A stretch of 64,000 bases of DNA from Oceanispirochaeta sp. (GTDB taxonomy: Bacteria; Spirochaetota; Spirochaetia; DSM-2461), in assembly GCA_963666275.2 (NCBI GenBank), contig CAXXOA010000001.1:1600001-1664000 (forward strand), in the 5' to 3' direction. Position 1 is the first letter of the stretch. Each line of letters begins with the position of its first letter. The translations under genes were made by a program, and so were the position numbers. A model generated the notes under the pieces. It worked only from the letters and a program-made list of their open reading frames with translations. It made no database searches and had not been told where the DNA came from. Positions 15,734 through 49,934 of this stretch are shown here, one piece after another.

Positions 15734-15860
15734 TGTAGGATGATGCGATAATACTAACAGAAACCTGCGATAATTCCGGGATTTTCAGGTTTTTAACGGG
15801 ATATATCGGAAGACCGATTTAGAAAAGCTTTCATAATATGAGAAAAAACGCGGTGGGGAA
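15734..15860 (+). repeat. Left end (attL) with putative transposase-binding sites
   Basis: TGCGATAAT at 15744 and 15766 (22-bp spacing); third related site TATGAGAAAAAACGCGGTG near 15837. Confidence 0.8.
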
Positions 15861-15873
15861 ATCTGCCGGATCC

Positions 15874-15935
15874 TTTCAGTAATTTGAATTACTAACCACC
15901 ATTACATTACGATTTCAGCCTCTTCCATTTACTCT
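15874..15935 (+). promoter_or_regulatory. Putative activator-dependent late promoter 1 (lysis/packaging block)
   Basis: AGTAATTTGAATTACT-N8-TTACATTACGATTT-N14-TACTCT; same layout at 35280-35337. Confidence 0.75.
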
Positions 15936-15965
15936 GATTTCAGATATGAAAGATGAGGTGGAATC

Positions 15966-16379
15966 GTGATCCTACAGACAAGCCCTGAGCTGGATCGGCA
16001 AATTAAAAAGAATGGATGCTATTTTATGAGCATCCTCTTTCTGGCAGGCCAGAAATCCTGTCAAAGCTATCACACTGAAGATATCACGCGGATTAAGAAT
16101 GAAGCAATAAAAAAAGGATACCTTAGAAAAGATTGTTTTGTAAAAGATCCTGAAGGGATATTTCTTCTTGCCGGACTTCCTGTCCAATATACGAATACTC
16201 ACGAACCACCCTCAAGAAAAGTTGAATCCGATGAGCTTGAAATTCTCTATTACCGCTGGAAAGATGCCGGTCATTTTGTCGCAGGGGAAAACGGGGAAGT
16301 AGCTTACGACCCGATGGGAATGTCCAATTCTGTACAGTTGGGAGAGCTTCAGTCAAAGCGGATCTTTAAAGTTTTATGA
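15966..16379 (+). CDS. DUF261-like papain-fold protein, candidate endolysin
   Basis: GCYF...GHFV...YDP (Cys-His-Asp); first gene of the lysis cassette. Confidence 0.55.
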   Translation: MILQTSPELDRQIKKNGCYFMSILFLAGQKSCQSYHTEDITRIKNEAIKKGYLRKDCFVKDPEGIFLLAGLPVQYTNTHEPPSRKVESDELEILYYRWKDAGHFVAGENGEVAYDPMGMSNSVQLGELQSKRIFKVL

Positions 16380-16420
16380 ATCTCCGAGAGTTTCTCTGAG
16401 AAATAAATCATTAGGAGTAA

Positions 16421-16747
16421 ATGGTGAAAAATCTTACATCAATTATTGGGCTGATTTTAATTGTACTGGCAGTTCTGTGTGGGTATTTTATGGACTTCCC
16501 ACAGACTTGGATGCTTCAGGTTGTATCGGCCTCTGCTGGTCTGGCCATGGTCTTTCTGGATCAGGTTAAAAAGCGGGATAAAAAGGATTATTGGAAGGTC
16601 TATGTGATCGGTTTTATTTTATCCATAGGAACCATACTTGCGATATTCGGTGGAGTAAGTGATGCCACAATAACAACTATTATCGGAGCTGTGCTTATTG
16701 TTGCTGGAGCGGCTGTTGGAGTTTTGGCCGGTGTCAAAAATGGCTGA
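16421..16747 (+). CDS. Holin-like 4-TM membrane protein
   Basis: Four hydrophobic segments; lysis-cassette position. Confidence 0.5.
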   Translation: MVKNLTSIIGLILIVLAVLCGYFMDFPQTWMLQVVSASAGLAMVFLDQVKKRDKKDYWKVYVIGFILSIGTILAIFGGVSDATITTIIGAVLIVAGAAVGVLAGVKNG

Positions 16748-16949
16748 AATTAAACCCTGGTATCGATCCACAAAGAAGATGACTGGAATAATCTTCCTGG
16801 CCAATGGATTAGGAATGAGCTGGTTCTCATTTTTTCAGCAGAATCCAAATGATCCGGTAGCAATTATCGGGATGTTGCTGGGAACAGGGATAACTCTTCT
16901 AGGCATAAAAACAGCTGGCGGCGTGATGGCTGCAAAGTTTGGATTATGA
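16740..16949 (+). CDS. Small 2-TM holin/antiholin-like protein
   Basis: N-terminal KPWYRSTK followed by two TM segments; overlaps both neighbours. Confidence 0.5.
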   Translation: MAEIKPWYRSTKKMTGIIFLANGLGMSWFSFFQQNPNDPVAIIGMLLGTGITLLGIKTAGGVMAAKFGL

Positions 16950-17212
16950 GCTGGATCACTACGGCAAAAGTAGTTTTGATTCTCAGCCTGGTAGGTATTA
17001 CTGCTTACCAGGCTTTACGGATTAAGGCTCTTAAAAAGGACAACAAACAGAAGGACAAGGATGTTGAAACAGCCGAACAAAAAAACAAAGAAGCTGTCAC
17101 TACTCACAATGAACAGCAGCGGATCAGAGAAGAAGCTCAGAAGGAGAAAAAAGAGCTTGAAAATACCGATGATGACGATCTTGCCGATCGTGCTGACAAT
17201 CTTTTTCCTTAG
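16946..17212 (+). CDS. i-spanin (Rz)-like protein
   Basis: Single N-terminal TM followed by a charged coiled coil. Confidence 0.55.
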   Translation: MSWITTAKVVLILSLVGITAYQALRIKALKKDNKQKDKDVETAEQKNKEAVTTHNEQQRIREEAQKEKKELENTDDDDLADRADNLFP

Positions 17213-17444
17213 TTGCCAGACCTCTTCTTCAGAACCTTATAAGGGAGGTTACTCTGATTTTGACATCCCGATTCAGCCGGAAATTAGATCCGTTGATTTT
17301 ATGCGACTGGAGGATAAATCAGGGTTCTTCCTGATCAACCAAGAGTACAGAAATTTAGAGCACAATATTATCGAGTACCGTCGGTATATCGGAGAGCTGG
17401 AATCACAGCTTGGAATACCTCCTGAAGGTAGGTTTAATGGATAA
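17169..17444 (+). CDS. Lipoprotein, o-spanin (Rz1)-like
   Basis: MMTILPIVLTIFFLS-C lipobox; overlaps the 3' end of the i-spanin-like gene; Pro-containing mature region. Confidence 0.55.
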   Translation: MMTILPIVLTIFFLSCQTSSSEPYKGGYSDFDIPIQPEIRSVDFMRLEDKSGFFLINQEYRNLEHNIIEYRRYIGELESQLGIPPEGRFNG

Positions 17445-17826
17445 ATATATTCTACCTCTTGCTATCCAGGCTATCGGTACTACCGGGTCGGTAATTGGTG
17501 TGGTTTGGAGGATACAGAAAGCTCAATCAGACAAACATAAAGCAGAGCTGGAAAACCTCTCTAAAAAACATGATATAGAGATGAAAGCTTTACAGGAATC
17601 CTTCAAGGAAGAGCTTATTTCAATCAGAGAAATCATGTCTGAATGGGAGAAGCAGCGGAGGAATGGAGATCACGCTCTACATGAAAGAATCAATCAAATT
17701 GAAAGTAATGCTTATAAGGAAATAAACACCCGTCTTTCTCATATAGAAGGCCAGTTGAAAGGTCTTAATAATGTCACTCGGGTGATGGAAGAATGGCTTA
17801 TTAGAAATGGAGGAAAAGTCGAATGA
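17437..17826 (+). CDS. Phage protein with TM and coiled coil (Mu gp25/DUF2730-like position)
   Basis: N-terminal TM, coiled coil ending RLSHIEGQL; precedes the gp26-like gene. Confidence 0.5.
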   Translation: MDKYILPLAIQAIGTTGSVIGVVWRIQKAQSDKHKAELENLSKKHDIEMKALQESFKEELISIREIMSEWEKQRRNGDHALHERINQIESNAYKEINTRLSHIEGQLKGLNNVTRVMEEWLIRNGGKVE

Positions 17827-18116
17827 AAACTGATGTATTCAGCCCTAACCAGAGACGGATCATCCTGGAAGCTCTCGAAGGGGATAATGACTACTCATTG
17901 AACAATGGAATCCTGCAGAAAATCCTGGTTGAATTCGGTCATGGAGTCGGCAGAGAAAAGACGGATAAAGAAATTGCCTGGCTTGAAGAAAAAGGTCTTG
18001 TAACTGTGGAAGAGCTGACCGATAGCCTTAACGTCGTAAAGTTGACATCCAAGGGTTTGGATGTAGCTCACGGGCATGACAGAATTGAAGGTGTTGAACG
18101 CCCCGGCGTGGAGTAA
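17823..18116 (+). CDS. Mu gp26-like winged-helix protein
   Basis: RRIILEAL...IAWLEEKGLV...LTSKGLDVAHG..IEGVERP pattern. Confidence 0.8.
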   Translation: MKTDVFSPNQRRIILEALEGDNDYSLNNGILQKILVEFGHGVGREKTDKEIAWLEEKGLVTVEELTDSLNVVKLTSKGLDVAHGHDRIEGVERPGVE

Positions 18117-18118
18117 AT

Positions 18119-18673
18119 ATGGGGCGAAAATCCAATATAGACAAGCTCCCGGATGAGCTGAGAGAGAAGCTCCGTGAGCTGCTTAATAATTCTTCTGTAA
18201 CCCAGGCTGAAATCGTTGAAGTCATCAATGAAAAAGCAGGGGAACCTGTCCTCAGTACCAGTTCGGTAAACCGCTATGCCCTGCGGATGCAGAAACAGAT
18301 TGAGAAGACCAAACAAGCTCGGGAAGTAGCTGAAGCCTACATGAATAAAATGGGTGGAAATACCAGAAATCAGCTTGGAAAAGTTGTGAACGAGCAGATC
18401 CGTCTGATGAGCTTTGAGCTGATGACGGACATAGAGGAATTGAAGGAGAACGGAGAGACCGATCCAGGCCTAGTAATAGACCTGATATACAAAGTCAGCC
18501 GGGGGCTCAAAGAGCTGGAACAAGCTGAAAAACTTAACGCAGAAAGGGAATCCGATATCAGAAAAGAAGCCCTGAATGAAGCTGCTGCAACGGCAGAAAA
18601 ACAGCTAAAAAAAGAAGGTCTTTCCAATGATTCGATAATCCGTATAAAGAAGGAGATTCTGGGTATATCATGA
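18119..18673 (+). CDS. Terminase small subunit (DUF3486/Mu gp27-like)
   Basis: MGRKSNIDKLP...SSVNRY pattern; upstream of the large terminase. Confidence 0.85.
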   Translation: MGRKSNIDKLPDELREKLRELLNNSSVTQAEIVEVINEKAGEPVLSTSSVNRYALRMQKQIEKTKQAREVAEAYMNKMGGNTRNQLGKVVNEQIRLMSFELMTDIEELKENGETDPGLVIDLIYKVSRGLKELEQAEKLNAERESDIRKEALNEAAATAEKQLKKEGLSNDSIIRIKKEILGIS

Positions 18674-20172
18674 CCGACCAGGAACTGCTGAATATTGAGA
18701 TCCTTTTGCCCTATCAGGCTGCATGGTCAAAAGACCACTCCAAGGTCAAAGTCTGGGAAAAATCCAGGCGTATCGGGGCCAGTTACGGAGAAGCCTGCGA
18801 GACCGTTTTGGAAGCTGCAAAATCCAAAACTGAAGGCGGCCAGGATACTTTCTATCTTTCCTACAATAAAGAGATGACCCAGCAGTTCATAAGTGACTGT
18901 GCTATGTGGGCCAAAATCCTTAATAAAGCAGCTTCGGAAATTGAAGAAGTTGTCATCAATCATGAGGATAAGGATATCACAGTTTACCGCCTGACCATGG
19001 CCTCCGGATTTCAGATTTGGGGTCTCCCGTCAGAGCCCCGTTCTCTCCGTTCAAAACAGGGCCGGGTTATTATCGATGAGGCCGCTTTTGTAGAGAATCT
19101 CAGAGAGCTTTTGAAGGCGGCTATGGCTCTTACCATGTGGGGTGGAGTTGTTCGGATCATGTCTACTCATAACGGAGAAGACAACCCCTTCAATGAGCTG
19201 ATCAAAGAGATCAAAGAGGGTAAAAAAAACTACTCTCTTCATAGAACTACAATCCAGAATGCTCTGGATAAGGGCCTTTATAAAAGGATATGCCTGGTAA
19301 GCGACAGGGAGTGGTCTGAAGAAGCTGAAAAGGAGTGGCTTGATGAGCTGCTTGATGACTACGGAGACGGAGCAGCAGAGGAGTTGTACTGCATCCCCAC
19401 CAAAGGCGGAACCAGGTATATTTCCCGCTCACTGGTGGAATCCTGTATGGACAAGGATATTCCGGTTCTAAGCTACGAATGCACTGATGATTTTACCTTT
19501 GAATCAGACTTTGTTAGAGAAAGAAAAACCAATGATTGGCTGGAGGACAATCTCCTTCCTATCCTGAAGAACCTGCCCAATGATCCGGGCTTCATCGGGA
19601 TGGACTTTGCAAGGAGCGGAGACCTTTCTGAAATAGCTCTTTTTAATGAAACAGAAGGCCTCCGTTTGAGAGCTATCTGCTACCTTGAATTGAGGAATGT
19701 TCCCTTCTCCCAGCAGTTCCAGATTTTCTGCTATGTATGGGACAAGCATCCCCGGTTATTTGCAGCATCTCTTGATGCCAGGGGAAACGGCCAACACCTG
19801 GCGGAGCTTGCCGCTCAGAAGTACGGCCCGGCCTATGTGAATCAGGTGATGATCTCCAGGGCTTTTTATATGGAGTACATGCCAAAGTACAAAGCCAAGC
19901 TGGAAGACAGGGAGATGACCCTGCCCGGCTCTCCCGACATTATCGATGATCACAGAACAGTTGTTCTGGATAAGGGTGTTCCCACCATCTCGGAGAGGAC
20001 TTCCCAGGGCGGCGACAAGAATAAAAAGAGGCATGGAGACTCTGTCATTGCCGGTGTAATGGCCAACCATGCTTACGAGAATGACGACAGCTCTCACCAG
20101 AGCTATAAATACGAAGCGGTGAAAGCTTCAAACCCCTGGAGAGGAGGAACCAGCCGTGGCCGATGGAGATAA
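18670..20172 (+). CDS. Terminase large subunit (Mu gp28-like)
   Basis: LLPYQ, EKSRRIG, IIDEAAF, STHNG, GMDFARSGD and RHGD motifs. Confidence 0.95.
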   Translation: MTDQELLNIEILLPYQAAWSKDHSKVKVWEKSRRIGASYGEACETVLEAAKSKTEGGQDTFYLSYNKEMTQQFISDCAMWAKILNKAASEIEEVVINHEDKDITVYRLTMASGFQIWGLPSEPRSLRSKQGRVIIDEAAFVENLRELLKAAMALTMWGGVVRIMSTHNGEDNPFNELIKEIKEGKKNYSLHRTTIQNALDKGLYKRICLVSDREWSEEAEKEWLDELLDDYGDGAAEELYCIPTKGGTRYISRSLVESCMDKDIPVLSYECTDDFTFESDFVRERKTNDWLEDNLLPILKNLPNDPGFIGMDFARSGDLSEIALFNETEGLRLRAICYLELRNVPFSQQFQIFCYVWDKHPRLFAASLDARGNGQHLAELAAQKYGPAYVNQVMISRAFYMEYMPKYKAKLEDREMTLPGSPDIIDDHRTVVLDKGVPTISERTSQGGDKNKKRHGDSVIAGVMANHAYENDDSSHQSYKYEAVKASNPWRGGTSRGRWR

Positions 20173-21670
20173 AACCAAGAAGAAAGATCTGAAAAATGAG
20201 GTAGCAGCAGCTCAAACTATCGGTGTTCGCCAGGCTATCCAGTGGCCGGATATAACCTCCGGACTGGATCCGGTCAGACTGGCTGAAATTCTTAGGGCTG
20301 CCAGAGAAGGCAAAGCAGATGAATACCTGACTTTAGCTGAAGAGATTGAAGAGAGGGACCTTCACTACAGGTCTGTACTATCCACAAGGAAGCAGGCTGT
20401 TGAGGGTCTTGTTCCTACTATCATACCGGCTAGTGAAGAGAAAAAGGATCTGGATCTGGCCAAAGCTGTAGAAACGGATATTCTGGGCAGAGACGATTTT
20501 CCCGACCTAATAAAAGATGCCCTTGACGCTCTTGGCAAAGGGTATTCGGTTCATGAAATTCTCTGGAATACGAAAAGAACTCCCTGGAAACCCGATCGGA
20601 TCCTTTTCAGGGATCCCCGATGGTTTGAATATGATGAGCTTACAGGTAAAAAGCTCCATATGAAAGAAGATTATGGAACGACCCTTATTCCCCTGGCGGA
20701 AAGGAAGTTTATAGTCCATGAACCGCACCTGAAAACAGGGCTGCCGATACGGGGAGGATTAGCTCTCCCGATGGCTCTCTATTTTCTGATCAAATACTAC
20801 GATATTACAGCCTGGACCGCATTTATAGACCGCTACGGCCTGCCGATCCGGGTGGGAAAGTACGGTAGGAACGCTTCCGATAAAGACATTACCACTCTGA
20901 AGAGTGCCATAGCTCATTTGGGTGAAGATGTGGGAGCTGTTATTCCTGATTCAATGCTGATTGATATTATTGAGTCAAAAACATCCGGAAAAATTGAGCT
21001 GTATAAAGAGATGGCCGACTGGGTGGACAAGCAGGTAAGCAAGCTGGTACTGGGTCAAACCATGACAGCCGATGACGGGTCCAGCAGGAGTCAGGCGGAA
21101 GTTCATGACGATGTCCGCCAGGATATCCTGGAAGCCGATGCCAGGCAGCTGGAAAAAACCCTTAACCGGGATCTGATCAGGCCTTATATTGATTTGAACT
21201 GGGGTCCTCAGGAAAAATACCCAAGATTAAGAATCCCCTGTCCTGATACTGACGATATTACCGCTTGGGTGGATAATATTGAAAAGCTTGTTCCTCTCGG
21301 TTTGACTGTTAAGGCTGATGAAGTCAGAAGTAAATTGGGATTGTCCAGACCAGATGAAGGAGATGAGATCCTTCAACAAGCTCCAGCGACAGTTCCTGCT
21401 GAAAAGGATATGGGAACCGCTCTCAATGCCGAGCAGGATAAGGATATATCTGAGCTGGATCTTCTGCAGGAGGACAGTGATTATTCCGAGCTGTCGGATG
21501 ACATATTAAAAGCTGTTAACAAGCTGGCCGGGAAGTGCAGCACTCTGGAAGAGTTTCGCGACCGGTTGCCCGAGCTGCTCTCCCTATGGGATATGGAAAA
21601 AGCCGCCGACATCCTGACTCTCGAAACCTGGAAAGCCAGAGCCTTGGGAGATGCTGATTTTGCCGACTGA
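20156..21670 (+). CDS. Portal protein (DUF935/Mu gp29-like)
   Basis: LDALGKGYS, YGLPIRVGKY and SKLVLGQTMT..GS..QAEVH motifs. Confidence 0.95.
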   Translation: MADGDKTKKKDLKNEVAAAQTIGVRQAIQWPDITSGLDPVRLAEILRAAREGKADEYLTLAEEIEERDLHYRSVLSTRKQAVEGLVPTIIPASEEKKDLDLAKAVETDILGRDDFPDLIKDALDALGKGYSVHEILWNTKRTPWKPDRILFRDPRWFEYDELTGKKLHMKEDYGTTLIPLAERKFIVHEPHLKTGLPIRGGLALPMALYFLIKYYDITAWTAFIDRYGLPIRVGKYGRNASDKDITTLKSAIAHLGEDVGAVIPDSMLIDIIESKTSGKIELYKEMADWVDKQVSKLVLGQTMTADDGSSRSQAEVHDDVRQDILEADARQLEKTLNRDLIRPYIDLNWGPQEKYPRLRIPCPDTDDITAWVDNIEKLVPLGLTVKADEVRSKLGLSRPDEGDEILQQAPATVPAEKDMGTALNAEQDKDISELDLLQEDSDYSELSDDILKAVNKLAGKCSTLEEFRDRLPELLSLWDMEKAADILTLETWKARALGDADFAD

Positions 21671-23084
21671 TACCATTGTTCCGGAAGAAGCTCTGAATTT
21701 CCTGAGAGCAAAGCAGCTGAAACCGGCTTTCAGCTATGAAGATGTCTGGCTGGAAGAACACGCCAATAATTTTACCGTTGCGAAAGCCATGCAGTTGGAT
21801 GTTCTGCAGGACTTTAAGGATGCCATAGACCTGGCAATTGAGAATGGCCAAACTCTGGATCAATTCCAAAAAGAGATAACTCCTACCCTGATGAGAAAAG
21901 GCTGGTGGGGTAAAAAAACAATGGTAGACCCGGCTGACGGCAAGGAAAAGGCTGTCCGTCTGGGTTCTGACCGCCGGTTGAAAACTATTTACAATGTAAA
22001 TACCCGCCAAGCATACAATGCCGGAAGATGGGAACGTGGCCAGCGATCCGCAGCGCATACCCATATAATGTACCTGGTCGGCCCCAGTACACACCACAGG
22101 AAAGAGCATTTGTCTTGGAATGGTTTGGTTCTCCCCAAGGATCATCCTTTTTGGAATACCCATACCCCAATGAACGGATGGGGCTGCAAATGTTATTTCA
22201 GATATTTAACAAAGCAGAGGCTGGAGAAGCTTCGGAATGAGGGAATGCCGGATAATACGCATATTGTGGAAGGAAGGCCTTCCGGAACCATTCAAATTAA
22301 GGAAAATGCTCAGGATATTCAGTACAGGCAGTATATCAATAAGCGGTCCGGAAGAGTTTATACAGCTCCTGCAGGTATTGATCCGGGGTTTGAATGGAAT
22401 CCTGGATCCGCTAGAGGTACAGCAGTTTCTTCTTCCCTGCAGGGTAAGGTAAAATCTTTACAGCAAAGCTACCCGGCAACTCCGAAAGGGGTTCCCGTAT
22501 CAGAAGCTTTTTCAAAGATCACTCCCACCTATAAAACCAGTGTGAACCGGGCTCTTACAGCTATTAATAAGGTTCATGGAGACGGCAATCTCCCGAAGAT
22601 CCCAATTCAAGCAAGCAGGTCAAAGCAGTTTTATGGGGCTTTTGAATACAGTAGATACTCACGGGAAGCATCTGCCATTAAACTGGCCAGTAAAGATCAT
22701 CCGGAATTGACGCTGATACATGAAATAGGTCATTTTCTGGATAACAACGGGCTCCCAGGTAAAGGGTTCTGTTCGGAATTGAACCTTTCGGAGATTATAC
22801 CTTTGATGAAGGCCATTGATAATTCCAACGAAATTCAAGTTCTTAAAGCACTGCCATCCAATAAGAGTATTAGCTATCTGCTGAACCCTGCCGAACAGTT
22901 TGCCAGGGCTTACGCCCAGTACATTGCCTGGAAAACGCAGGATCCAACTTTAATTTTGCAGCTGAAGGGTATACAATTGAATTCAGGGAATCCTGTAAAC
23001 CGGTGCAAGCAATGGAATGAAGAAAACTTCCTTCCCATTGCCGCCGAGTTTGATATTCTGTTTAAAAAGATGGGATGGTTATGA
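21651..23084 (+). CDS. MuF (gp30) head protein with C-terminal HExxH metallopeptidase-like extension
   Basis: FTVAKAM..DVL, RRLKTIY..N and PMNGWGCKC MuF motifs; C-terminal IHEIGH...EQFARAYAQY. Confidence 0.85.
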   Translation: MLILPTDTIVPEEALNFLRAKQLKPAFSYEDVWLEEHANNFTVAKAMQLDVLQDFKDAIDLAIENGQTLDQFQKEITPTLMRKGWWGKKTMVDPADGKEKAVRLGSDRRLKTIYNVNTRQAYNAGRWERGQRSAAHTHIMYLVGPSTHHRKEHLSWNGLVLPKDHPFWNTHTPMNGWGCKCYFRYLTKQRLEKLRNEGMPDNTHIVEGRPSGTIQIKENAQDIQYRQYINKRSGRVYTAPAGIDPGFEWNPGSARGTAVSSSLQGKVKSLQQSYPATPKGVPVSEAFSKITPTYKTSVNRALTAINKVHGDGNLPKIPIQASRSKQFYGAFEYSRYSREASAIKLASKDHPELTLIHEIGHFLDNNGLPGKGFCSELNLSEIIPLMKAIDNSNEIQVLKALPSNKSISYLLNPAEQFARAYAQYIAWKTQDPTLILQLKGIQLNSGNPVNRCKQWNEENFLPIAAEFDILFKKMGWL

Positions 23085-23365
23085 TACTGAAAGGAACAGC
23101 AGCAGACGGAACTCCATACTCAATAGACTCAGACGCTATTACCCAGGAAGATATTGATTCTTTCGGTAAAGAAAATGATTGTGTCTGTTGTGTCAGATGT
23201 CTTATACCTGTTACTGATGAAACAAAACAGTATGAAGATCCGGAAAGTCCCGGCATGATAGCAGCCTATCCTTTCGACGAAGAAAATGAGCTATATCACC
23301 CCTATGGAAAAGATGGTTGGCCAGTTGAAAAAGTTCTCATCGATAAAAATGGAAGCCTTGTCTAA
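23081..23365 (+). CDS. Small acidic protein, candidate immunity partner of the MuF extension
   Basis: ATGA overlap with the MuF stop; very acidic; CVCCVRC. Confidence 0.5.
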   Translation: MILKGTAADGTPYSIDSDAITQEDIDSFGKENDCVCCVRCLIPVTDETKQYEDPESPGMIAAYPFDEENELYHPYGKDGWPVEKVLIDKNGSLV

Positions 23366-23407
23366 TTTACTTTACAAATACCCGCCTTTGTTGTAATTAA
23401 CTTAACT

Positions 23408-23857
23408 TCAATTCATCAACTCAGAATCTTCTTTAAACCTTCTGACTTCATCTTCAATATTTTCTTTTAGGTGATGCATTGAAACAAAGTTTTCAATGAA
23501 ATAAATTAAGCAAAAAATCAGATATACAGAAAAAAGAATATAAGTATCAAATTTGATGATTTTCCATTCAAACTGATATTGATAGTCTTTTAGCAGAAAC
23601 AGCACAGTCGAGATAGCAAATAAGACGATAAAAGTAATCTGAATGGAATGGAGCTGAGGACGGAATCTCTGAACAAATTTCTCATTTGGGATATCTGCAA
23701 ATGAAAAAGACATTATTTGACTTAATCCCAACGAGAACATGATTCCCAAAATAGTAAAAATTACAGTTAATGATTGTTCTGTAAAACAAACAGGGACATA
23801 GGATAGAAAAAAAGAGATTAATAATATTATTGAACTTCTAATTAACCACCTTGCCAT
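23408..23857 (-). CDS. 4-TM membrane protein, RexB-like candidate
   Basis: About 150 aa with four TM segments; overlaps the upstream 308-aa gene. Confidence 0.5.
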   Translation of the reverse strand: MARWLIRSSIILLISFFLSYVPVCFTEQSLTVIFTILGIMFSLGLSQIMSFSFADIPNEKFVQRFRPQLHSIQITFIVLFAISTVLFLLKDYQYQFEWKIIKFDTYILFSVYLIFCLIYFIENFVSMHHLKENIEDEVRRFKEDSELMN

Positions 23858-24764: not shown

Positions 24765-24802
24765 TAATGATTCTCCTCACCTTTAATTTGATTGCTATAA
24801 AT

Positions 24803-25702: not shown

Positions 25703-25742
25703 AAGTTTTGGTCCTATTGAGATACATTATTTTTTAAAAAGT

Positions 25743-26006: not shown

Positions 26007-26084
26007 ATTTTATTCTCCTTTTGATCCATCATATGCGGGTCTTATTTCTTCCATGAAATTAACCCCATCTAATAGATTCTTATT

Positions 26085-26674: not shown

Positions 26675-26709
26675 GTTTCCCTCCGATTTAATCTATGCTG
26701 TTCCATTTC

Positions 26710-40914: not shown

Positions 40915-40933
40915 TAAATAAGGAGAAAAACAA

Positions 40934-41290: not shown

Positions 41291-41631
41291 TGAAGAAACT
41301 GACACTGAACACGCCTGTTTCAAAGGGGGAACGGACCATATCGGAGCTGAAGTTTTCCGATGCCAAGGTCCGCCACATGACAGCTATTGACGGCTTTGAA
41401 GATAAAAACGGTTACGGAGCGGATCTTGCTTTGGCATCCTCTCTAACAGGGGAACCTGTTTCTATACTGGGAGAGGTTGAGCCGGAAGATTGGGTAAAGG
41501 TCAGAGAGATCCTGACGGAAGTTTATGCCCGGTTTATGGGCCTTTCCCTGGAAGAACTTCAGGAGGCCTCTGACCCCCCGGCCCAGCCGGAGGACAGCGA
41601 AGCCTCCGGAGAGTCATCGACGAAACCATAG
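41290..41631 (+). CDS. Tail assembly chaperone (gp41/gpE-like)
   Basis: L.L.TPV..G..TISEL...LTG.P...L.E..PEDW; between tube and tape measure. Confidence 0.85.
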   Translation: MKKLTLNTPVSKGERTISELKFSDAKVRHMTAIDGFEDKNGYGADLALASSLTGEPVSILGEVEPEDWVKVREILTEVYARFMGLSLEELQEASDPPAQPEDSEASGESSTKP

Positions 41632-41759
41632 CCGAGATAATGCTGATTCTTCCGGGAATGGGATACGAGACTCTGATGGACATGACAGGGCCCCGTTTTT
41701 GGGAGTGGCATGAAATAGCCTTGCAAAAATATGGAGAGATAAGAGGAGTTAACGGTTAA
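41574..41759 (+). CDS. -1 frameshift extension of the tail chaperone (gpE'-like)
   Basis: C CCC CCG slippery heptamer; the -1 frame is open to a TAA overlapping the tape-measure ATG and encodes IAEIMLILPGMGYETLMDM...FWEWHEIA. Confidence 0.75.
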   Translation, partial: PPGPAGGQRSLRRVIDETIAEIMLILPGMGYETLMDMTGPRFWEWHEIALQKYGEIRGVNG

Positions 41760-43783
41760 TGGCCGATTTAAAAGCCAAAGTACAACTTGGTTTAAACAAC
41801 AAACTATCCGGCGGAATAAAAACAGCCGGGCGCGACATGGCATCTTTTGCCAGCGGAGCGTCCGGCGCTTTGTCCAGAGTGGACAGAGCAATATCCGGTA
41901 CTGCCGGAAAACTCCTCTCCCTGGGGGGCGGTCTCGGCCTGGCCGCCGCAGCCAAACAGACCATAGACCTTGAAAAGCAGATGACCAGGCTGGGAACCCA
42001 GGCCGGTGTTTCTGCGGCGGAAATGGACAAGCTGAAAGCCAATATTTTCGCTGTTTCCCGAAATAATAAAATAAAAGTTGATCCTTCTCAGCTACTGGGA
42101 GCTGTGGATTCCATCATTGAAAGAACCGGTGATATGGATTTTGCCAGGGAAAACCTAGAAAGCATCGCCATGGCCATTCAGGCCTCCGGAGCGGAGGGAA
42201 ATGCTATCGGCGGGCTCTATGCGGAGTTCCAGAAAATGGGTCTGGGCGCTGATACGGCTATGCAGGCAATCGATACACTGACCCTCCAGGGAAAAAACGG
42301 AGCATTTACCCTGGAAAACCTGGCAGCCCTGGGGCCCAGAGTTATAAATGCCTATACCGCCACCGGCAGGAACGGAGCGGCCGCGTTAACGGAAATGGGA
42401 GCGGCTCTGCAGGTAATCCGGAGAGGTACAGGGAGTTCTGAACAGGCTGCCACCAGCTTTGAAGCTCTAATGCGGAACCTGGTTGATCCGACTAAGCAGA
42501 AAAAACTCAAGGATATGGGAGTATCTGTTTACGACACGGCAGGGAAATTCCGCTCTGTTACCAGTCTCATTGAAGAAATCGTCACCAAATCAAAAGGAGA
42601 TCTCAGCAGCCTGGGAACAATCTTCGATAGCGAAGCCATGAGAGCTTTCAACTCGGCTATTTCCGAGTTTCAAAGATCCGGAACAGTCGGAAGCCTGGAA
42701 GAGTTTTTGAAAATGCAGGGAGACGGTTCTACGGTAATGAAAGATTCCGCCAGGAATGCTTCAACCATGGCAGCCAATCTTACCAATCTGAAAACCAGCT
42801 TCCAGGATTTTGCGGATGATAATCTGGCCGCCCCCATTGAGAAGGTCGCGAATGTACTGAACTCAGTTTCTCCCGAGCAGTTTGATACATGGATGAACGG
42901 AGCCAAAAATGTGGCTATCGGACTGGCAGCTCTGAAAGGTGTAACCATGACAGCTTCTGCCTTAACGTCTGTTGCAGGGCTGGTAAAGGCTGTACCTGGC
43001 AGAAGTGGAGCAGCTTCAATGGCTTCCGGCATGGGCGGAGGGTCTCCTGTTTTTGTAACAAACTGGCCTGCCGGTATGGGAGGAATCACCGGTGGAGCTG
43101 GAGCTTCTGCCAGTGGAGTCGTGGCGAGCGGCGGCGCAAGAAGTACAGCTGCGATCCTGAAGGCAACTGCCAGGCAAGGCGGGATACGAGGGGCTGTCGC
43201 AAGAGGATTGTTTAAGCCCTTTGTGAGGTTAAGTGCCGCTGCCGGTAGATCCGGAGCTCTTGGTTCTGTTTTGCGAATGGGCGGGAGAATCGCCAGTAAA
43301 GCAAATGTGGCCATCCCGGTTGCTCTTTCTGCTGTTGAGATTGCCAAAATTGCCGGTTCAAGGAATCTCAATAAAGAAGAAAAAACAAAGGAGATAAGCG
43401 GAGCAGCCGGAGGTCTGGGGGGTATTCTGGCCGGAGCTGCAGCAGGAGCTGCTTTGGGATCCGTTATTCCAGGAGCAGGAACTGCAGTCGGTGCTCTCCT
43501 TGGTATCGGCGGCTCTCTATTGGGCGGGTATCTCGGACGGAAAGGCGGAGAAAAAATCGGTGACGGAATCAATTCCATATCCTCCATGGCTAACAATTCC
43601 GCTTCAGGAATGAATATTCCCACAGCCACCTCATATATGCCTGGTGCTCCAGGGGTAAATATAAGAAATGAAATGAATATTGAAGAACTGGCCGAAGGGT
43701 ATGCTTACCGGAACAATACCTATATTAATGACATGCTGGTCAATGTTGAAACCGGTGCTCAGTCCAGGAGTATTCAGGGATGA
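41759..43783 (+). CDS. Tape measure protein
   Basis: Ala/Gly-rich 674 aa; QGK.GAFTLENLA motif. Confidence 0.9.
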   Translation: MADLKAKVQLGLNNKLSGGIKTAGRDMASFASGASGALSRVDRAISGTAGKLLSLGGGLGLAAAAKQTIDLEKQMTRLGTQAGVSAAEMDKLKANIFAVSRNNKIKVDPSQLLGAVDSIIERTGDMDFARENLESIAMAIQASGAEGNAIGGLYAEFQKMGLGADTAMQAIDTLTLQGKNGAFTLENLAALGPRVINAYTATGRNGAAALTEMGAALQVIRRGTGSSEQAATSFEALMRNLVDPTKQKKLKDMGVSVYDTAGKFRSVTSLIEEIVTKSKGDLSSLGTIFDSEAMRAFNSAISEFQRSGTVGSLEEFLKMQGDGSTVMKDSARNASTMAANLTNLKTSFQDFADDNLAAPIEKVANVLNSVSPEQFDTWMNGAKNVAIGLAALKGVTMTASALTSVAGLVKAVPGRSGAASMASGMGGGSPVFVTNWPAGMGGITGGAGASASGVVASGGARSTAAILKATARQGGIRGAVARGLFKPFVRLSAAAGRSGALGSVLRMGGRIASKANVAIPVALSAVEIAKIAGSRNLNKEEKTKEISGAAGGLGGILAGAAAGAALGSVIPGAGTAVGALLGIGGSLLGGYLGRKGGEKIGDGINSISSMANNSASGMNIPTATSYMPGAPGVNIRNEMNIEELAEGYAYRNNTYINDMLVNVETGAQSRSIQG

Positions 43784-44979
43784 GTGATTGGAGAGAGGAA
43801 CTGAAAAAAACTCCCCTGTCCTTCCGGGGAGTCCGGATCATCTGGACCGATACCAAGGAATCCGGCGGTTTCAATAATGATAAGAAGGTCTATCCCTCCC
43901 TGGGAGGATGGGATATTGACCAGATCAGTCAGATCCCAAACAGCTTTAGCATTAACGGCAAACTGCTGGGAGACGATTACCTGGATAAAAAGAAGATCCT
44001 GAAGGAAGCTCTGCTGACTCCCGGCAAGGGAACTCTTGTTCTCCCCGGCTTAGGATCTGTGGATGTCCTGGTAGCCAAATGGAATATCCAGGAGAGACTT
44101 GATGCCAAGGGTATGGCTGTAGTCAGCATCGACTTCGATAAATACCAGCCCGATGAAATCAACTTTGCCGAGCCGGACCCGGTACAAATCCTGGTGGATT
44201 ATTCCGAGCAACAGCAAGCAGCCACTCTGGCCGTGGTGGAAGAGAATATGGACCTCTCCTCAGATACTCTGCTCCTGGAGGCGAAGAAAGCTTTTGGCTC
44301 TGTCTTTGATGAGATCCTGAACATCACAGCCATGCTGCAGGGAAAAACCGGACCGCTGGCTGATGTCTTGTATGAGATTGAGCAGGCCCAGGGCAAACTC
44401 GATACCCTTGTAACATTGCCTGGTGAGATGCTGTCCTCTCTATTTTCTATTATGGACAGCCTGGTCTCTTTCGTGGCTACGGGGGAACAGGTCTTCGCCC
44501 TGGTTGATCCGATCCGCTCCTGCCTACAGGACTTCAAACGGGCTTTAAAGTTCCAGATTTATCCAGGAACAAATGACCAGAACGAAGAGATCCCGAAGAC
44601 CCAGAACTCCCGGATGGCAGAGCATACCTACACGGTCCTGGCATTTTACGGAACAGCCAAGCTGATGGAGAGTTTTGAGCCCTGGTCCCAGGAAGATGCA
44701 GAGCAGCAGGCCGCGGTACTGGTGGATCTCTCAATTGCGGCAGAATCGAACTCCTCAGATGAAAATGAGGTGATACGGAACTTAAGAACCCAGGGCACCG
44801 CTGTCCTTTATAAAACGGTCCAGTCTCTGGGGCTCGTTAACCAGAAGGAGATCTTTCTGACCAGTCCGGTAAATGCTCTTTTCCTTGCGGCGCAGCTGGG
44901 AACAACAGTGGAAGTACTGCAGAAATTCAACAGACCCGAAAACCTGTTTCAAATGAAAGGGAGAATCCTCTATGTCTGA
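43780..44979 (+). CDS. DNA circularization protein (Mu gpN-like)
   Basis: W...L...SFRGV...G.DY......L..AL..PG.GTL..P..G. Confidence 0.85.
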   Translation: MSDWREELKKTPLSFRGVRIIWTDTKESGGFNNDKKVYPSLGGWDIDQISQIPNSFSINGKLLGDDYLDKKKILKEALLTPGKGTLVLPGLGSVDVLVAKWNIQERLDAKGMAVVSIDFDKYQPDEINFAEPDPVQILVDYSEQQQAATLAVVEENMDLSSDTLLLEAKKAFGSVFDEILNITAMLQGKTGPLADVLYEIEQAQGKLDTLVTLPGEMLSSLFSIMDSLVSFVATGEQVFALVDPIRSCLQDFKRALKFQIYPGTNDQNEEIPKTQNSRMAEHTYTVLAFYGTAKLMESFEPWSQEDAEQQAAVLVDLSIAAESNSSDENEVIRNLRTQGTAVLYKTVQSLGLVNQKEIFLTSPVNALFLAAQLGTTVEVLQKFNRPENLFQMKGRILYV

Positions 44980-45913
44980 CTTACTTATCAAGATCGAAGG
45001 AAAGGAATATCTCACCTGGACTACCTTCTATTTAAAGAAAAGCCTGGAAGAAGTGGCACACTCCTTCAACTTCTCAGTGAAGGCGGGAGCAGGAATCCAT
45101 AAGATCCAGAAACATGATGATGTAAAGATCCTCTTTGGAGGGAAATCCTATACAGCTGGTCGGATTGATAAGACCATACATACTCTCAGCAAAGACAGCA
45201 ACGTTTATTCCTATGCTGGACGCAGTTATGTGCGGGATCTGATTGATAGCTCAGCAACAGCCCATTATGAGGGTTGGTATTTGACTGCGATATTTGATCA
45301 TCTTTGTGCTATATATCATGTCCCCTATGATAAGCCTGATGATGTTAAGACCTCAATCGTTAAAAAGTTTGCACTTACAGCAGAATCCCCTTGGCAGAAA
45401 ATGGTTGCCGAGGCTTTGAACCAGGGGCTGATTTTTACTAGTGATCTGGTTGGTGGGGTTATCCTTGGAAAAGCCAGTTCGGAAAAGCTTCCGGCTGTAC
45501 TGGAAGAAGGTGTGAACTTTCAGCAAATGGAAGAAGAAGCTGATGGGTCTTCGCAATTCTCTGCTTACACAGTACGATCCGGAGACCGACAGGGACAAGT
45601 TCTTGATCCAGACATAGGAACAAAGTTCCAACGCCCCCTGGATATCTATATCGATAGAGAGACTATGACCGGCGAGCTGAAGAAACGGGCCGAAATGGAG
45701 ATGAAGAGGGGTCAGTCCAAGAAGTACCGAATAACCCTGGGCAGCTGGAAGTATGCGGAAGGCAAGTACTGGGATGTGAACTACCAGGTGAAAGTGAAAA
45801 GCCCCACCTTTGAGCTGGATAAATACTTGTTGATTACGCAGGTTGAGTTCTTCCTGAGGGAAAGAAGGAAGCATGTAGTTCTGACCCTGGAGGAGAAAGA
45901 ACTCTATGAGTAA
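44972..45913 (+). CDS. Baseplate hub (Mu gpP/gp44-like)
   Basis: GRS..RDLIDSS, L.EG.N and W.VN..V.V motifs. Confidence 0.85.
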   Translation: MSDLLIKIEGKEYLTWTTFYLKKSLEEVAHSFNFSVKAGAGIHKIQKHDDVKILFGGKSYTAGRIDKTIHTLSKDSNVYSYAGRSYVRDLIDSSATAHYEGWYLTAIFDHLCAIYHVPYDKPDDVKTSIVKKFALTAESPWQKMVAEALNQGLIFTSDLVGGVILGKASSEKLPAVLEEGVNFQQMEEEADGSSQFSAYTVRSGDRQGQVLDPDIGTKFQRPLDIYIDRETMTGELKKRAEMEMKRGQSKKYRITLGSWKYAEGKYWDVNYQVKVKSPTFELDKYLLITQVEFFLRERRKHVVLTLEEKELYE

Positions 45914-46403
45914 TCAGGTTAAACAGCTTTTTGAAAGGATAAGAAAGCTCTTCGCCACAGGAGAAATCACCAATCCCGACTTCAAAGCTCCCCAAATAAA
46001 AACCCAGCAGGGGCAGATCGTAAAAGAGACCATCCGTTGGCCTTACGGATTCACCTCCTGGCCAGAGGAAGGAACCGTTCTGGTGATGTTCAAAGGAGGT
46101 GATCAGGGAGCTGCAGAGGTGCTGTATGTGAGCAGTCGAAACGGCGAACCGTCTCTTGAAAAAGGGGACGCTGCACTTTGGAGCAAAGCCGGTGCGGCAG
46201 CTATCGCAAAGCAGTCCGGGAAGCTAGCCATTTACAGCAATACCATAACCTTGAAAGCCTGGCTGGATGAGCTGATAACGATCTGTTCGGGGATAAATAC
46301 AGTTCCAACTTCCGGAACAAATCCTCCTCAGACATTAAATCCTCTAGTAGTTACCCAACTGGAAGCTCTGAAATTGAAAACAGCTCAGCTACTGGAGGAT
46401 TGA
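45906..46403 (+). CDS. Baseplate spike (Mu gp45-like)
   Basis: PYGFTS.P..G...F.GGD...L.KGD.AL. Confidence 0.8.
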   Translation: MSNQVKQLFERIRKLFATGEITNPDFKAPQIKTQQGQIVKETIRWPYGFTSWPEEGTVLVMFKGGDQGAAEVLYVSSRNGEPSLEKGDAALWSKAGAAAIAKQSGKLAIYSNTITLKAWLDELITICSGINTVPTSGTNPPQTLNPLVVTQLEALKLKTAQLLED

Positions 46404-46407
46404 AGCA

Positions 46408-46719
46408 GTGTTTGAATGGACTGATGACCCTGTAGAGATCGCCTGGATCTGCATCGGGACTGATAAAGGAAAATGGTGGGCTGACCTAGAGTTCGGGACG
46501 ATCCTCTGGCAACTGAAAAAAGAGAAGGTCACAGCGGAGACTCCCCGTAAGGTGGAAGAGACCCTGACCGAAGCAGTCGGCTGGATGGTTCCGGCGGAGA
46601 TGATCACCAGTTTTGAGGTCATCGTTGAAGTATTGAAAAACAGGGTGAACTGGAAGGTTTCACTCATCCTGCCGGATAAGACTCCGGCTGATATTACCGG
46701 AGGTTACAATGGGGTTTAA
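46408..46719 (+). CDS. Baseplate protein (Mu gp46-like)
   Basis: G.WWAD..FG..LW.L..EK...EA..W. Confidence 0.85.
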   Translation: MFEWTDDPVEIAWICIGTDKGKWWADLEFGTILWQLKKEKVTAETPRKVEETLTEAVGWMVPAEMITSFEVIVEVLKNRVNWKVSLILPDKTPADITGGYNGV

Positions 46720-47752
46720 TACACCGACCTTGGAGGAACTCCAGGAGCAGCACTGGAACGATTTTAACAGCCGGTTGAGTCCGGTCAAATCCTCCCCTAA
46801 ATACAGCACTCTGAAGATCAACAGCATGGTCAATGCAGGGATGTTTCACCTGCTCCATGAGAACTTGAAATTCCTGGCTCTGCAGCTCTTTCCGGACACC
46901 GCTGAAGGCGTTTATCTGGATGCTCACTGGAGCTGGAGAAGCGACAAGAGAAAGCTGGAAACTTTCTCAGTCGGTCCCATGACTGTGACCGGTGTCCCCG
47001 GTACTTCAATCCTTGCCGGAGACAGCTGGGTTGTCGGCGATATTTACTACGTTGCTCAAGAAGAAACAGTAGTCGGCGGAGACGGGACTGCAGTAGTACA
47101 GATCAGAGCCCTGGTAGCTGGTGACGAAGCTGATCTTGATGAAGGAAAAACCTTAGAAGTCAGCAGGCCTAAAGCCGGTCTGGATGATGAAGCTGTCAGT
47201 GGTGGAATCGCCGGGGGAACCGACCGGGAAGAAGACACTGATTACAAGAACAGAATGCTCCTGAATCTCCGGATCGGAACCAAGTACGGAAAGCCTGGCG
47301 ACTGGGCTTCATGGGCTCTGGATTCCAGTGCTGAAGTGGTCAAAGCCTGGGAGTATCCGCTCTCAGATTCTTACGGAACACTGCTCATCCAGGTGCTGGC
47401 TGATAACTACTCACAGGTAGCGGATCTGGCTACTGTGAAAGCTTATATTCAGAGTGTTGCACCGCCGCTCCTTTGGACTGTCGAGACTCCTGAAATCAAA
47501 TCCTTCGACATGTTCCTTCATGTGAATAATGCCTCAGAGGATACAGCTGAAAACAGAGCTGCAGCAGAAGCTGCTCTCTCCCTCTGGATGAGTGAAAACG
47601 CCAAGCCGAATCTGGAGATTTCCGCCGGTCTTCTCAGCACCATTGCATCATCCCCTGCAGGGCTCACTTATGTGGTTGTTACCTTCCCCGGAGACACCCC
47701 TACATTCACCATCAGAGAGTTCCCTGTAATAGGAAATAAAACATGGTATTGA
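46709..47752 (+). CDS. Baseplate J-like wedge protein (Mu gp47)
   Basis: PTLEEL, Q.FPDTA.G.YL..H, GG.D.E.D..Y..R and G...D...WA motifs. Confidence 0.9.
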   Translation: MGFNTPTLEELQEQHWNDFNSRLSPVKSSPKYSTLKINSMVNAGMFHLLHENLKFLALQLFPDTAEGVYLDAHWSWRSDKRKLETFSVGPMTVTGVPGTSILAGDSWVVGDIYYVAQEETVVGGDGTAVVQIRALVAGDEADLDEGKTLEVSRPKAGLDDEAVSGGIAGGTDREEDTDYKNRMLLNLRIGTKYGKPGDWASWALDSSAEVVKAWEYPLSDSYGTLLIQVLADNYSQVADLATVKAYIQSVAPPLLWTVETPEIKSFDMFLHVNNASEDTAENRAAAEAALSLWMSENAKPNLEISAGLLSTIASSPAGLTYVVVTFPGDTPTFTIREFPVIGNKTWY

Positions 47753-48543
47753 TGCCCCTTCTGAGTCATGAAGACTACGTCCAATCAATCAAGCAGCTCT
47801 ATCCGGTTGGTGAGTACTGGGATGCCGTTTTCTCTGATTCTGAGAGTGAATTATCCCTTTATGTGGATGGGCTGGCAGCCTCTGCAAAAAGGGCTCAAGA
47901 CCGCTTTGTTGACCTCCTTATGGAAGCCTTTCCGAACACTGCAAATGAGCTGATCACAGACTATGAAAGAGTCTTTGAAGTAACTCCTGAAGGAGAGCTG
48001 AGCGACCGTCAGAATCATGTCATTACTGAGTGGATCGGTAGCTTGTTCAGACCTACTGACTGGGATGCCATTGCAGCTGAATATTCCTTCACTCTGACAC
48101 TGGAAAGACAGAAGATGTTCTGCTGTGGACTCAGCTCCTTCGGGGATCAATTGTGGGACGTTTCTGCCAGGTCATTTCTGGACTTTTCAGTCACTATGCC
48201 CATAGGCACAGAAGACGAAACGAAGGTAGCATTTGAAGCCAAAATGTGGGCTTTGTCACCTCCAAATTACTACCTGAATTTCAACTATCCCAGGGGCTGG
48301 TATGACATAGCTGAAGAGTTTGGATTCACCCTTACGGACTCAGCTGAAGAGACGTATTCCCTGGATGGTGCGCGGCTTGAGGATCTCCTCTGGGGCAGTG
48401 ATGCTAAGTACTATCTCACTCTTGAAATGGTAGTTCCTGCAGGCACTACTTCAGAAGAAAAAGAAAACTTCGAAACGGAAATCAGCAGTGTCACAGCAGC
48501 TGATTATTTTATTGAATTTAACTATACGGAGGAAAGCGTATGA
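47743..48543 (+). CDS. Baseplate wedge (Mu gp48/DUF2313-like) with duplicated C-terminal domain
   Basis: L.P.G.YW...EA.P.TA.ELI.DYER; internal repeat of about 78 aa. Confidence 0.75.
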   Translation: MVLMPLLSHEDYVQSIKQLYPVGEYWDAVFSDSESELSLYVDGLAASAKRAQDRFVDLLMEAFPNTANELITDYERVFEVTPEGELSDRQNHVITEWIGSLFRPTDWDAIAAEYSFTLTLERQKMFCCGLSSFGDQLWDVSARSFLDFSVTMPIGTEDETKVAFEAKMWALSPPNYYLNFNYPRGWYDIAEEFGFTLTDSAEETYSLDGARLEDLLWGSDAKYYLTLEMVVPAGTTSEEKENFETEISSVTAADYFIEFNYTEESV

Positions 48544-49313
48544 GTCTATATCCTGTAGACGAAGTCCTTCCTGATGGCAGCATTTATCCGGGAATGGACA
48601 CAGATACCAAGAAGTTTACTTCTGGTGATGCCCAGCAAGGAATCAAGGCATCTGCATTACCTGCAGATACGATCAATTTTATCCTGGACAACCTGGGAGA
48701 GTTGGCTGATTTCGGAAATGGCAGCTCAAACCCTGCTGACACTGATCAGATCAAGAAAGCTGTCAGGAACCTGGTTGCCCCGGTTGGAAAGCTGTATACA
48801 CAGTATCCTTTTATGCCTACGCCTGATGTTTTTTATGGAGGGCTGGGGACCTGGGAGAATATCTCTACAAGAGCTGTCGGGTATGGGATTTCTGATGTGA
48901 ACAATGGTGATCCTGCTAGCTATATCAGCCGTGGGGATGCCGGGCAGGGGCTGGACTTTGCAGATGCGGATCTGGCTGTAGATGATCAGATTGCTGGCGG
49001 GTCATATGATGGGAAGTATGTTCGGTCGGTAGAGAGTTATGAAGGAGTCTTTTTTGCTGTTGAAGGAGGAAATCGGAATTCATTTGATGATGCTTTACAG
49101 GAATCACAAAATAAACAGCATGGCCACTCAATCACTGTTGGTAATGATACAGTTGCTTTTGGTAAGCCTGGATCTTATAACTCTACACCATATTATACAG
49201 GGCTAGGAGACACTGGTATTACTAGTGGAACAGATGGTGGTATCACATTAAGCGGAGGAATCGAAGCACAACCTGTAAATAGATCATTTCGTATATGGAT
49301 GAGGAAGGTATAA
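48540..49313 (+). CDS. Short tail fibre/baseplate tip protein
   Basis: FT.GD...GI.AS..PA N-terminus; PVG.LYTQ...P...YG..GTW and terminal P.N...RIW.R motifs. Confidence 0.7.
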   Translation: MSLYPVDEVLPDGSIYPGMDTDTKKFTSGDAQQGIKASALPADTINFILDNLGELADFGNGSSNPADTDQIKKAVRNLVAPVGKLYTQYPFMPTPDVFYGGLGTWENISTRAVGYGISDVNNGDPASYISRGDAGQGLDFADADLAVDDQIAGGSYDGKYVRSVESYEGVFFAVEGGNRNSFDDALQESQNKQHGHSITVGNDTVAFGKPGSYNSTPYYTGLGDTGITSGTDGGITLSGGIEAQPVNRSFRIWMRKV

Positions 49314-49840
49314 TGGAATACGTATACAATAACAATGGACAGATTCATCATAGCTGTGGTTCATCTCTCCCCGAGGGAGCAATTAAGGTCACTGGTTGGA
49401 AAGGAACTCCTGGAGAACCTTGGGAGTGGTATAAGAACGGTAGTCGAATCTCTGATGATGACCTGGTAGCTACCGGACTCCGGAAGGATTACCGAGGAAA
49501 ATATTATGACAAGGATAAACTGGAACACAAGATCTCTGTCCTAGACAAGGAACCTGAATCCACCTGGACAAAAGATATCTGGTCCCATCACACCGATGTT
49601 CTTAATCAGGAAACAATGACCTGGATAGAAGACACTGACGCAAAAGCTGAATATGAGGAAGCCATACTCAGAGGCAAAAGAACTACCGAGTTCTCCCTGT
49701 TTGACAAATACCAGCTACCACTTCTCTGGGCTGATCTGACAGAAGCTCAACAGACAGAATATACCGAGTGGAGGACCTCCTGGTTAAATGCTCCTGAAAC
49801 AAAGATCCAGCCTGAGCGGCCCGAATGGTTCCAGGCCTAA
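49313..49840 (+). CDS. Tail fibre assembly-like protein
   Basis: Last late gene; C-terminal LR.KR...W..LTEAQQ.E..EWR..WL.APE...P.RP.W. Confidence 0.6.
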   Translation: MEYVYNNNGQIHHSCGSSLPEGAIKVTGWKGTPGEPWEWYKNGSRISDDDLVATGLRKDYRGKYYDKDKLEHKISVLDKEPESTWTKDIWSHHTDVLNQETMTWIEDTDAKAEYEEAILRGKRTTEFSLFDKYQLPLLWADLTEAQQTEYTEWRTSWLNAPETKIQPERPEWFQA

Positions 49841-49871
49841 AATACTTCCTACCTGAAATAAGTTTTTATAT

Positions 49872-49934
49872 TATGAGAAATACTGCGGTGAGAATTATCG
49901 CAGTATTTCTTTATTTTTTTCGCGGGGTGCTACA
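49872..49934 (-). repeat. Right end (attR) with putative transposase-binding sites
   Basis: Reverse complement TGTAGCACCCCGCGAAAAAAATAAAGAAATACTGCGATAATTC matches the left end at 30/43 positions; third site is inverted. Confidence 0.85.
49876..49920 (+). terminator. Late-operon terminator formed by inverted end sites
   Basis: AGAAATACTGCG-N11-CGCAGTATTTCT followed by TTATTTTTTT. Confidence 0.6.

Follow-up and report, generated by a model that had tools for sequence, protein, structure and literature searches.

The window, a stretch of 64,000 nucleotides from Oceanispirochaeta sp., contains a prophage of 34,201 bp (positions 15734-49934, 46% GC) that is very probably an intact-looking transposable myovirus of the B3/Tn552 type. 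Its head genes are split in the manner of phage KS10, and its lysis-packaging arm, inverted relative to that of KS10, would be a self-contained late operon switched on by a Mor-like activator. A split of this kind around a central transposition module is already known; the inward left arm, which reads from the left end into the element on the plus strand, and its repeated flipping among relatives are new. As determined by a PHROG scan of 51 open reading frames (ORFs) and a Pfam scan of 53, the order is lysis-terS-terL-portal-F, then cargo and repressor, then early genes-A-B-gemA-mor, and finally protease-capsid-gp36-G-tail. The gap from the end of F to the start of the protease gene is 12,260 bp, in agreement with the roughly 12 kb of immunity and early genes that an earlier note on this DNA had placed between F and the next head genes; its placement of gpG after gp36 is likewise borne out by the gene order scan. 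The overall order proposed there, from attL through lysis to attR, stands on the PHROG and Pfam matches, except that 'lysis' should be read as a putative label, drawn from one Rz-like match (E = 1.6e-7), two hydrophobic ORFs and a DUF261 gene.

Ends and classification of the element

The left end at 15734 starts with TGTAG and the right end at 49934 finishes with CTACA (TG…CA ends). The direct repeat GGGTAG flanks the prophage as a 6-bp target-site duplication (TSD), its left copy at 15728-15733 and its right copy at 49935-49940, within the last codons of the host gene msrAB. This pair of ends shows 27 of 40 inverted matches, versus 11 for the sole other TSD-flanked TGT/ACA pair. Boxes of the TGCGATAAT type, predicted transposase sites, occur at offsets 11 and 33 of both ends: the left end (15734-15774, plus strand) has two, and the right end (49894-49934, minus strand) has one at offset 33 and a degenerate one at offset 11. 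All three perfect copies of TGCGATAAT in the window are at the prophage ends. The element is thus complete at both ends, as the earlier note had claimed, and is present as a single copy in the 5.27-Mb genome. The msrAB frame (49895-51070, minus strand) runs open into the prophage end, giving 391 amino acids (aa) as compared to 386 at the empty site, and the gene is probably still functional with the prophage in its last codons.

Three marker families, GemA (PF06252), Mor/C (PF08765, E = 7.9e-16) and the Mu-type portal (PF06074), all score above their cut-offs, and the DDE transposase and TnpB ATPase are matched by phrog_310 and phrog_296. A search with the transposase matched 69 phage records, the best being B3-type at 29-39%, with D142, D235 and E271 invariant with B3, BcepMu and Komp_PAO1_1; a transposase scan of viral contigs returned no match. 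Judged by its transposase, its ends with their TSD and its marker genes, the element would be classed as a B3/Tn552-type member of the transposable phages (proposed Saltoviridae). It is slightly short compared with the ~35-39 kb usual for such phages; its bounded relatives span 33.1-38.1 kb.

Integrity of the assembly

The unusual order recurs elsewhere. G002, a sister species of the same genus and the sole match among 60 relatives searched, carries a 33,061-bp copy at another site, with TSD GTATAT, the window's order, 70-83% nucleotide identity, a transposase 93% identical and the same end sequences (the first 60 nt of the left end are identical). In the sequencing run X2, one contig of 52,550 bases covers the whole region with 0 differences, and both X1 and X2 hold the prophage and its host flanks on a single contig, with no joints at the ends. 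X4, a run from a second study, contains a close relative with a left arm ~99% like the window's. Its alignments break off precisely at 15734 and 49934, beyond which come 486 and 570 bases of different DNA, and its contigs bridge 21153-26006 and 34360-35797, spanning both junctions. Counting the window, G002 and X4, this order is known from three independent sites. The contigs cross both ~23.4 and ~35.2 kb, the points at which breaks in reads would, according to the earlier note, mark a misassembly. As far as the contigs show, misassembly is excluded.

Comparison with known transposable phages

The earlier note suggested that the split layout might be novel. This is not the case, as KS10 already has the split, the mor-protease junction and G after the capsid, and eight of the 20 family members described below share its orientation. 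The capsid genes of KS10 are ~11 kb apart and its first 17 kb were called inverted by its authors (Goudie et al. 2008, PMC2628397). In the KS10 record (EU822883), F, portal, terL, terS and lysis genes occupy the left of the minus strand, followed rightward by cargo, repressor, transposition genes, gemA, mor, protease, capsid, MuG and a Mu-like tail. The two phages have in common a repressor/transposition module that splits the head genes, a lysis-terS-terL-portal-F group on the left, a leftward repressor with cargo next to it, gemA-mor immediately ahead of the protease, MuG following the capsid genes and a contractile tail like that of Mu; the split measures 12.7 kb from terS to protease in KS10 and 12.3 kb from F to protease in the window. 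They differ in that the KS10 left arm reads outward whereas that of the window reads inward, and in that the KS10 capsid is B3-like whereas that of the window is Mu gpT-like. The KS10 transposase is not detectably similar to the window's (BLASTP E = 5.0). KS10 is matched by eight of 36 window queries, at 22-44%, and would not be placed as genus-level kin. No TG…CA ends or flanking repeats are reported in the available text of the KS10 paper (PMC2628397). An unannotated Ralstonia record, YO002_1, has the KS10 layout too.

The departure from Mu order on which the earlier note rested is real, but the proper comparator for the early module is B3/BcepMu rather than Mu. These phages share with the window the transposase family, a single Mor/C gene and an early run of helix-turn-helix (HTH), ORF13-like, A, B, DUF3164, gemA and mor genes, so that the early module of the window is that of B3 and BcepMu gene for gene. 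B3 also makes a 6-bp TSD (PMC8705779). In B3 and BcepMu, unlike the window, the genome forms two divergent arms: the early arm, at the left end, reads outward, and the late genes are all contiguous. The window's order is two inversions away from theirs. As the gene maps suggest, inversion of the left half of a B3/BcepMu-like genome, from the end to the F/protease boundary, would give the KS10 order, and inversion of the stretch from the left-end sites to the repressor would then give that of the window. Mu resembles the window in its capsid, protease, portal, sheath and baseplate families and in an equal Pm motif, and the window's activator is nearer to Mor than to C. Unlike the window, Mu has c-ner-A-B at the left end, contiguous F-G-I and a 5-bp TSD. 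Its transposase is MuA, its Mor/C cascade has two steps, and it carries gin/mom; none of these features was seen in the window.

That prophages of Leptospira might share the layout, as the earlier note proposed, holds in part. Like the window, they have spirochaete hosts, a B3-type TnpA and a 6-bp TSD, and in their TG1 group terS-terL-portal stand apart from the remaining structural genes; in the portion of the paper available, however, they are described as always having two divergent arms and as lacking Mor/C (PMC8705779). Pseudomonas phage Bise (OR683401) splits at F/G versus protease like the window, but its early genes point left with the packaging arm. POA1180, Komp_PAO1_1, MMP7, YO107_2 and a Helicobacter prophage record were considered as precedents for the inward order, and none matched; Mae-JY22 could be mapped only partly for comparison of order. 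The inward order was found neither in the literature searched, which had two key surveys outside its reach, nor in 12 phage records, a small share of the 120-449 matched per query. This spirochaete phage lineage was not found in that same literature, the two surveys again lying beyond it, and the accessible part of a survey of 38 Treponema prophages makes no mention of 'transposable' or 'socranskii'.

Arm orientation among relatives

A search with the capsid protein retrieved 80 viral and 80 genome loci. The mor-to-protease junction occurs in 37 of these 160 (23 viral, 14 genome), the remainder comprising 96 with the contiguous Mu/B3 order, four with an opposite-strand arm upstream and 23 undecided. 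Thirteen of the 14 genome loci with the junction are titled Treponema, Treponemataceae or Spirochaetales, the other being a Ruminococcus metagenome-assembled genome, and among carriers that have names, Treponema and Spirochaetales records come nearest. In a scan of 401 genomes of the phylum, the portal was found in 40 and the Mu capsid in 16; that scan lists a Treponema genome in the class of the host, itself a spirochaete. Fourteen of the 37 junction loci (nine genome, five viral, the longer contigs being picked) were extended, and G002 and five members from the phylum scan were added. After removal of one duplicate and two non-members that lack the family layout (G104 and G095), 20 distinct members remained, the window included; G073 duplicates G061 and G391 duplicates G065, each pair being counted once. 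Two members, G087 and G316, end at contig boundaries. In G225, the terL frame ends at 222 aa, and in G068 ~1 kb of additional sequence separates terL from portal; either may reflect a frameshift or an insertion.

The left arm is inward in 12 of the 20 members and outward, as in KS10, in eight. Inward members include Treponema socranskii (G065) and two genomes from other classes of the phylum (G225 and G087). A blind scan for TGT…ACA pairs with a TSD gave mostly chance pairs in the relatives, and for this reason their ends were redefined by cross-genome alignment. TG…CA ends with a 6-bp TSD were then found in eight of 13 relatives tested (three inward, five outward; 33.7-38.1 kb), while no TSD was found for G062, G064, G068, G352 and G087. 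In the case of G352, the entire contig C18 (34,198 bp) is phage and starts at the left end, as would be expected if the flanks were heterogeneous.

When an inward and an outward member are paired, the left end keeps the same direction, and the inverted stretch begins ~0.1-0.25 kb inside it and ends shortly before the repressor gene. A convincing inverted repeat flanking the left arm was not found. Near the tail-fibre end, Treponema members have a gene of the resolvase family (G065:C67:36465-36887, G066:C17:60360-60785 and G061:C24:69008-69202), possibly a Gin-like invertase; none was found in G000, the genome of the window, or in G075. A programmed, invertase-driven arm switch was accordingly rejected for the window prophage, which has neither a resolvase-family gene nor a convincing flanking inverted repeat, the search having been confined to that recombinase family.

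Trees were built under LG+G4 with one to five outgroups. The 15 members in the terL and TnpA trees group in a single starred clade (100/98 and 100/99) whose basal members are inward, and two orientation changes are required; the capsid tree, in which Mu is the only outgroup, likewise requires two. A partly unresolved 20-member tree gives three. A single outward clade is rejected by the approximately unbiased (AU) test (p = 7e-6). We infer that the left-arm stretch flipped at least twice in the spirochaete lineage, in which inward looks to be the older form and outward to have arisen more than once.

Predicted late promoters and the Mor-like activator

The longest direct repeat in 15600-36000 is 63 nt long and 75% identical, at 15874-15936 and 35276-35338, at the starts of both late operons, in keeping with the two matched late promoters of the earlier note. 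Predicted late promoter 1 (15874-15936, plus strand) has tandem TAA-N6-TTA boxes, 25 nt and a -10 element TACTCT, resembling Mu Pm; predicted late promoter 2 (35276-35338, plus strand) is built in the same way, with TAATCT 7 nt before the protease ATG. The motif matches Mu in its Pm region (9175), and in the window it matches at 15893 and 35295; its host background is 0.0014 per 100 bp per strand. The reported Mor binding site in the Mu middle promoter region consists of two 5-bp inverted repeats separated by a 6-bp spacer (PMC4390567). The single activator of the window is 42% identical to Mu Mor and 29% to Mu C.

Among the members having the region before the protease, 15 of 18 carry the motif there. 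In outward members it lies upstream of the packaging genes, on the strand of the arm, in seven of eight. Three inward members have a one-mismatch motif 156-159 bases inside the left end, which is the window's position. The promoter motif flips together with the arm. Each arm is likely to be an independent Mor-activated operon, and because each would carry its own late promoter, splitting and flipping would be tolerated.

The protease ATG is 6-7 nt past the predicted -10 element (35332-35347 in the window, and at the same spot in Treponema members), which suggests a leaderless late mRNA conserved across the family. An imperfect inverted repeat at 35171-35231, between mor and late promoter 2 and kept in G002, is a possible terminator or operator.

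Proposed cycle and alternative explanations

In the lysogen, the CI-like repressor would block the rightward early promoter and would probably be co-expressed with the leftward cargo, a RexAB-like pair included. Upon induction, genome copying by TnpA and TnpB would proceed through replicative transposition. The last gene of the early run encodes the Mor-like protein, which would bind the TAA-N6-TTA boxes and open both late promoters. The promoter 160 bp inside the left end would serve lysis, terminase, portal and F, and the one before the protease would serve capsid, neck and tail. With a promoter to each arm, the position and direction of the arms would be largely free.

Several points weigh against this account. 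The motif was derived by eye from the mor-protease spacers of relatives, and matches in those spacers are not independent because the motif was read from them; it is missed before the protease in three of the 18 members. The strict left-arm motif, upstream of the packaging genes on the strand of the arm, is found in only five of 12 inward members, and a third match in the window, at 16579, is probably due to chance. The few outgroups, together with possible exchange of modules between phages, could mimic repeated flips. Because the KS10 transposase lacks detectable similarity, convergence or mosaicism, rather than inheritance, may account for the resemblance to KS10. The runs X1-X3 possibly represent the source sample of the window. 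Phage activity, promoter use and Mor binding are predictions from sequence.

Such exchange is the core of one alternative, in which the left arm flipped once and recombination of arms or modules between co-resident phages scattered the orientations. Transposable phages are mosaic (PMC8705779), G075 and G068 change place between the terL and TnpA trees, and several forks are unresolved; yet terL is itself a gene of the arm, and its tree still places outward arms in two distinct starred clades (AU p = 7e-6). Closely related inward and outward members have the same left end, with the inversion beginning just inside it. We regard a single flip as improbable. It is more improbable still that the layout is as described but belongs to a prophage defective in its host, the rearrangement being a relic. 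The single copy, the absence of joints at the ends in X1 and X2 and a short tail-fibre gene (257 aa) would fit such a relic, but every core ORF is open, with a length normal for the family, and the order recurs at the three independent sites noted above. A misassembly or two fused prophages is scarcely credible: the departure from Mu's order was the only support found for it, and it is opposed by the X2 contig (possibly the source sample itself), by the bridging of both junctions in X4, by the one TSD that encloses the whole and by the 11 other inward members. The layout is a stable design common to a spirochaete lineage, as the earlier note had in essence proposed. The joint reading that this is an undescribed phylum-wide lineage, in which a free-standing Mor-switched cassette flipped repeatedly and the inward orientation is itself regulatory, is doubtful; there, the inward late transcript would collide head-on with the repressor/RexAB-like operon and turn off exclusion and immunity genes in lytic growth.

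Gene content of the prophage

The putative lysis block (15966-17826, plus strand) comprises the DUF261 protein, the two hydrophobic ORFs (candidate holins), an Rz-like spanin gene starting at 16946 with an overlapping ORF, and a 138-aa gene. No endolysin was matched in this block by the PHROG and Pfam libraries. The DUF261 gene (15966-16379) belongs to a mostly spirochaetal family, holds the endolysin position and encodes conserved Cys18 and His103, and its product is a candidate cysteine-peptidase endolysin; comparison with solved structures gave no match. The packaging and head run (17823-23084, plus strand) follows, with gp26-like, terS (Mu gp27), terL, Mu-type portal and MuF genes starting at 17823, 18119, 18670, 20156 and 21651, respectively. 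A 96-aa ORF without assigned function (23075-23365, plus strand), also present in G002, is the last of the left arm.

On the minus strand, the cargo (23408-27111) is followed by the gene for the CI-like repressor, with HTH and S24 peptidase domains (27123-27806). In the divergent control region (27807-27990), a sigma70-like early promoter is predicted at 27837-27865, and the end box occurs in two near copies. These one-mismatch TGCGATAAT copies (27823-27863) overlap the predicted promoter and are possible repressor operators resembling transposase sites, although one-mismatch copies are frequent by chance.

The B3-like early module (29112-34432, plus strand) holds HTH genes, a phrog_1748 gene, the DDE transposase (30883-32583), TnpB (starting at 32558) and DUF3164, and gemA (34300) and the Mor/C-family activator (34820) complete the run (34300-35152, plus strand). 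The remaining head genes (35345-39441, plus strand) are the protease (35345), with a possible internal scaffold start at 35828, gpT major capsid (36318), gp35, gp36 (37693), G (38112) and a gp37-like gene. The Mu-like contractile tail (39454-49840, plus strand) comprises sheath, tube, chaperone, tape measure, gp43-gp48, short fibre and assembly genes. Stray homologues of the tail-fibre and fibre-assembly genes (52% and 76% at the aa level) lie in the host chromosome at G000:C1:1788470-1789632, with no other phage matches there.

Cargo genes and a candidate exclusion pair

The cargo block is of low GC (36%), lies downstream of the repressor and is variable among relatives. It consists of a pair (23408-24764, minus strand) encoding a 308-aa protein of predicted RexA/RdgC-like fold and a 151-aa hydrophobic protein, together with low-GC ORFs of 299, 87, 136 and 133 aa (24803-27111, minus strand). 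The 308-aa protein has no sequence match in Pfam, PADLOC or PDB, and its family, of 415 representatives, is unnamed; the 20 of these that were scanned gave no meaningful Pfam match. Clusters of DUF4747, DUF6731 and RexA are among its neighbours in a language-model comparison, in which the recognition score lies under the threshold of the tool. The top Foldseek match of its model is lambda RexA (8twq; E = 2.1e-4, probability 1.00, but TM score 0.34, 13% identity and pLDDT 70), followed by CENP-N and RdgC. RexB is a small membrane protein encoded downstream of cI. On the basis of the model, the 308-aa and 151-aa proteins are likely to form a RexAB-like exclusion module. The scan found no terminator-like site between the last ORF of the arm and the gene for the membrane partner, which are 42 bp apart.

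Significance

The prophage is not a new kind of element; its inward arm, the flipping of that arm more than once and the Mor-box logic add modestly to what is known. It adds a third arrangement to the series from B3 to KS10, and a Mor-box promoter for each arm offers a testable reason why a split head module is tolerated. Close relatives with opposite arms amount to a natural experiment on the constraint of gene order in transposable phages. The findings point to a family whose members are complete transposable prophages, carried by Treponema and by other spirochaetes. Few phages and genetic tools exist for this group, and the family could supply tools of the mini-Mu type.

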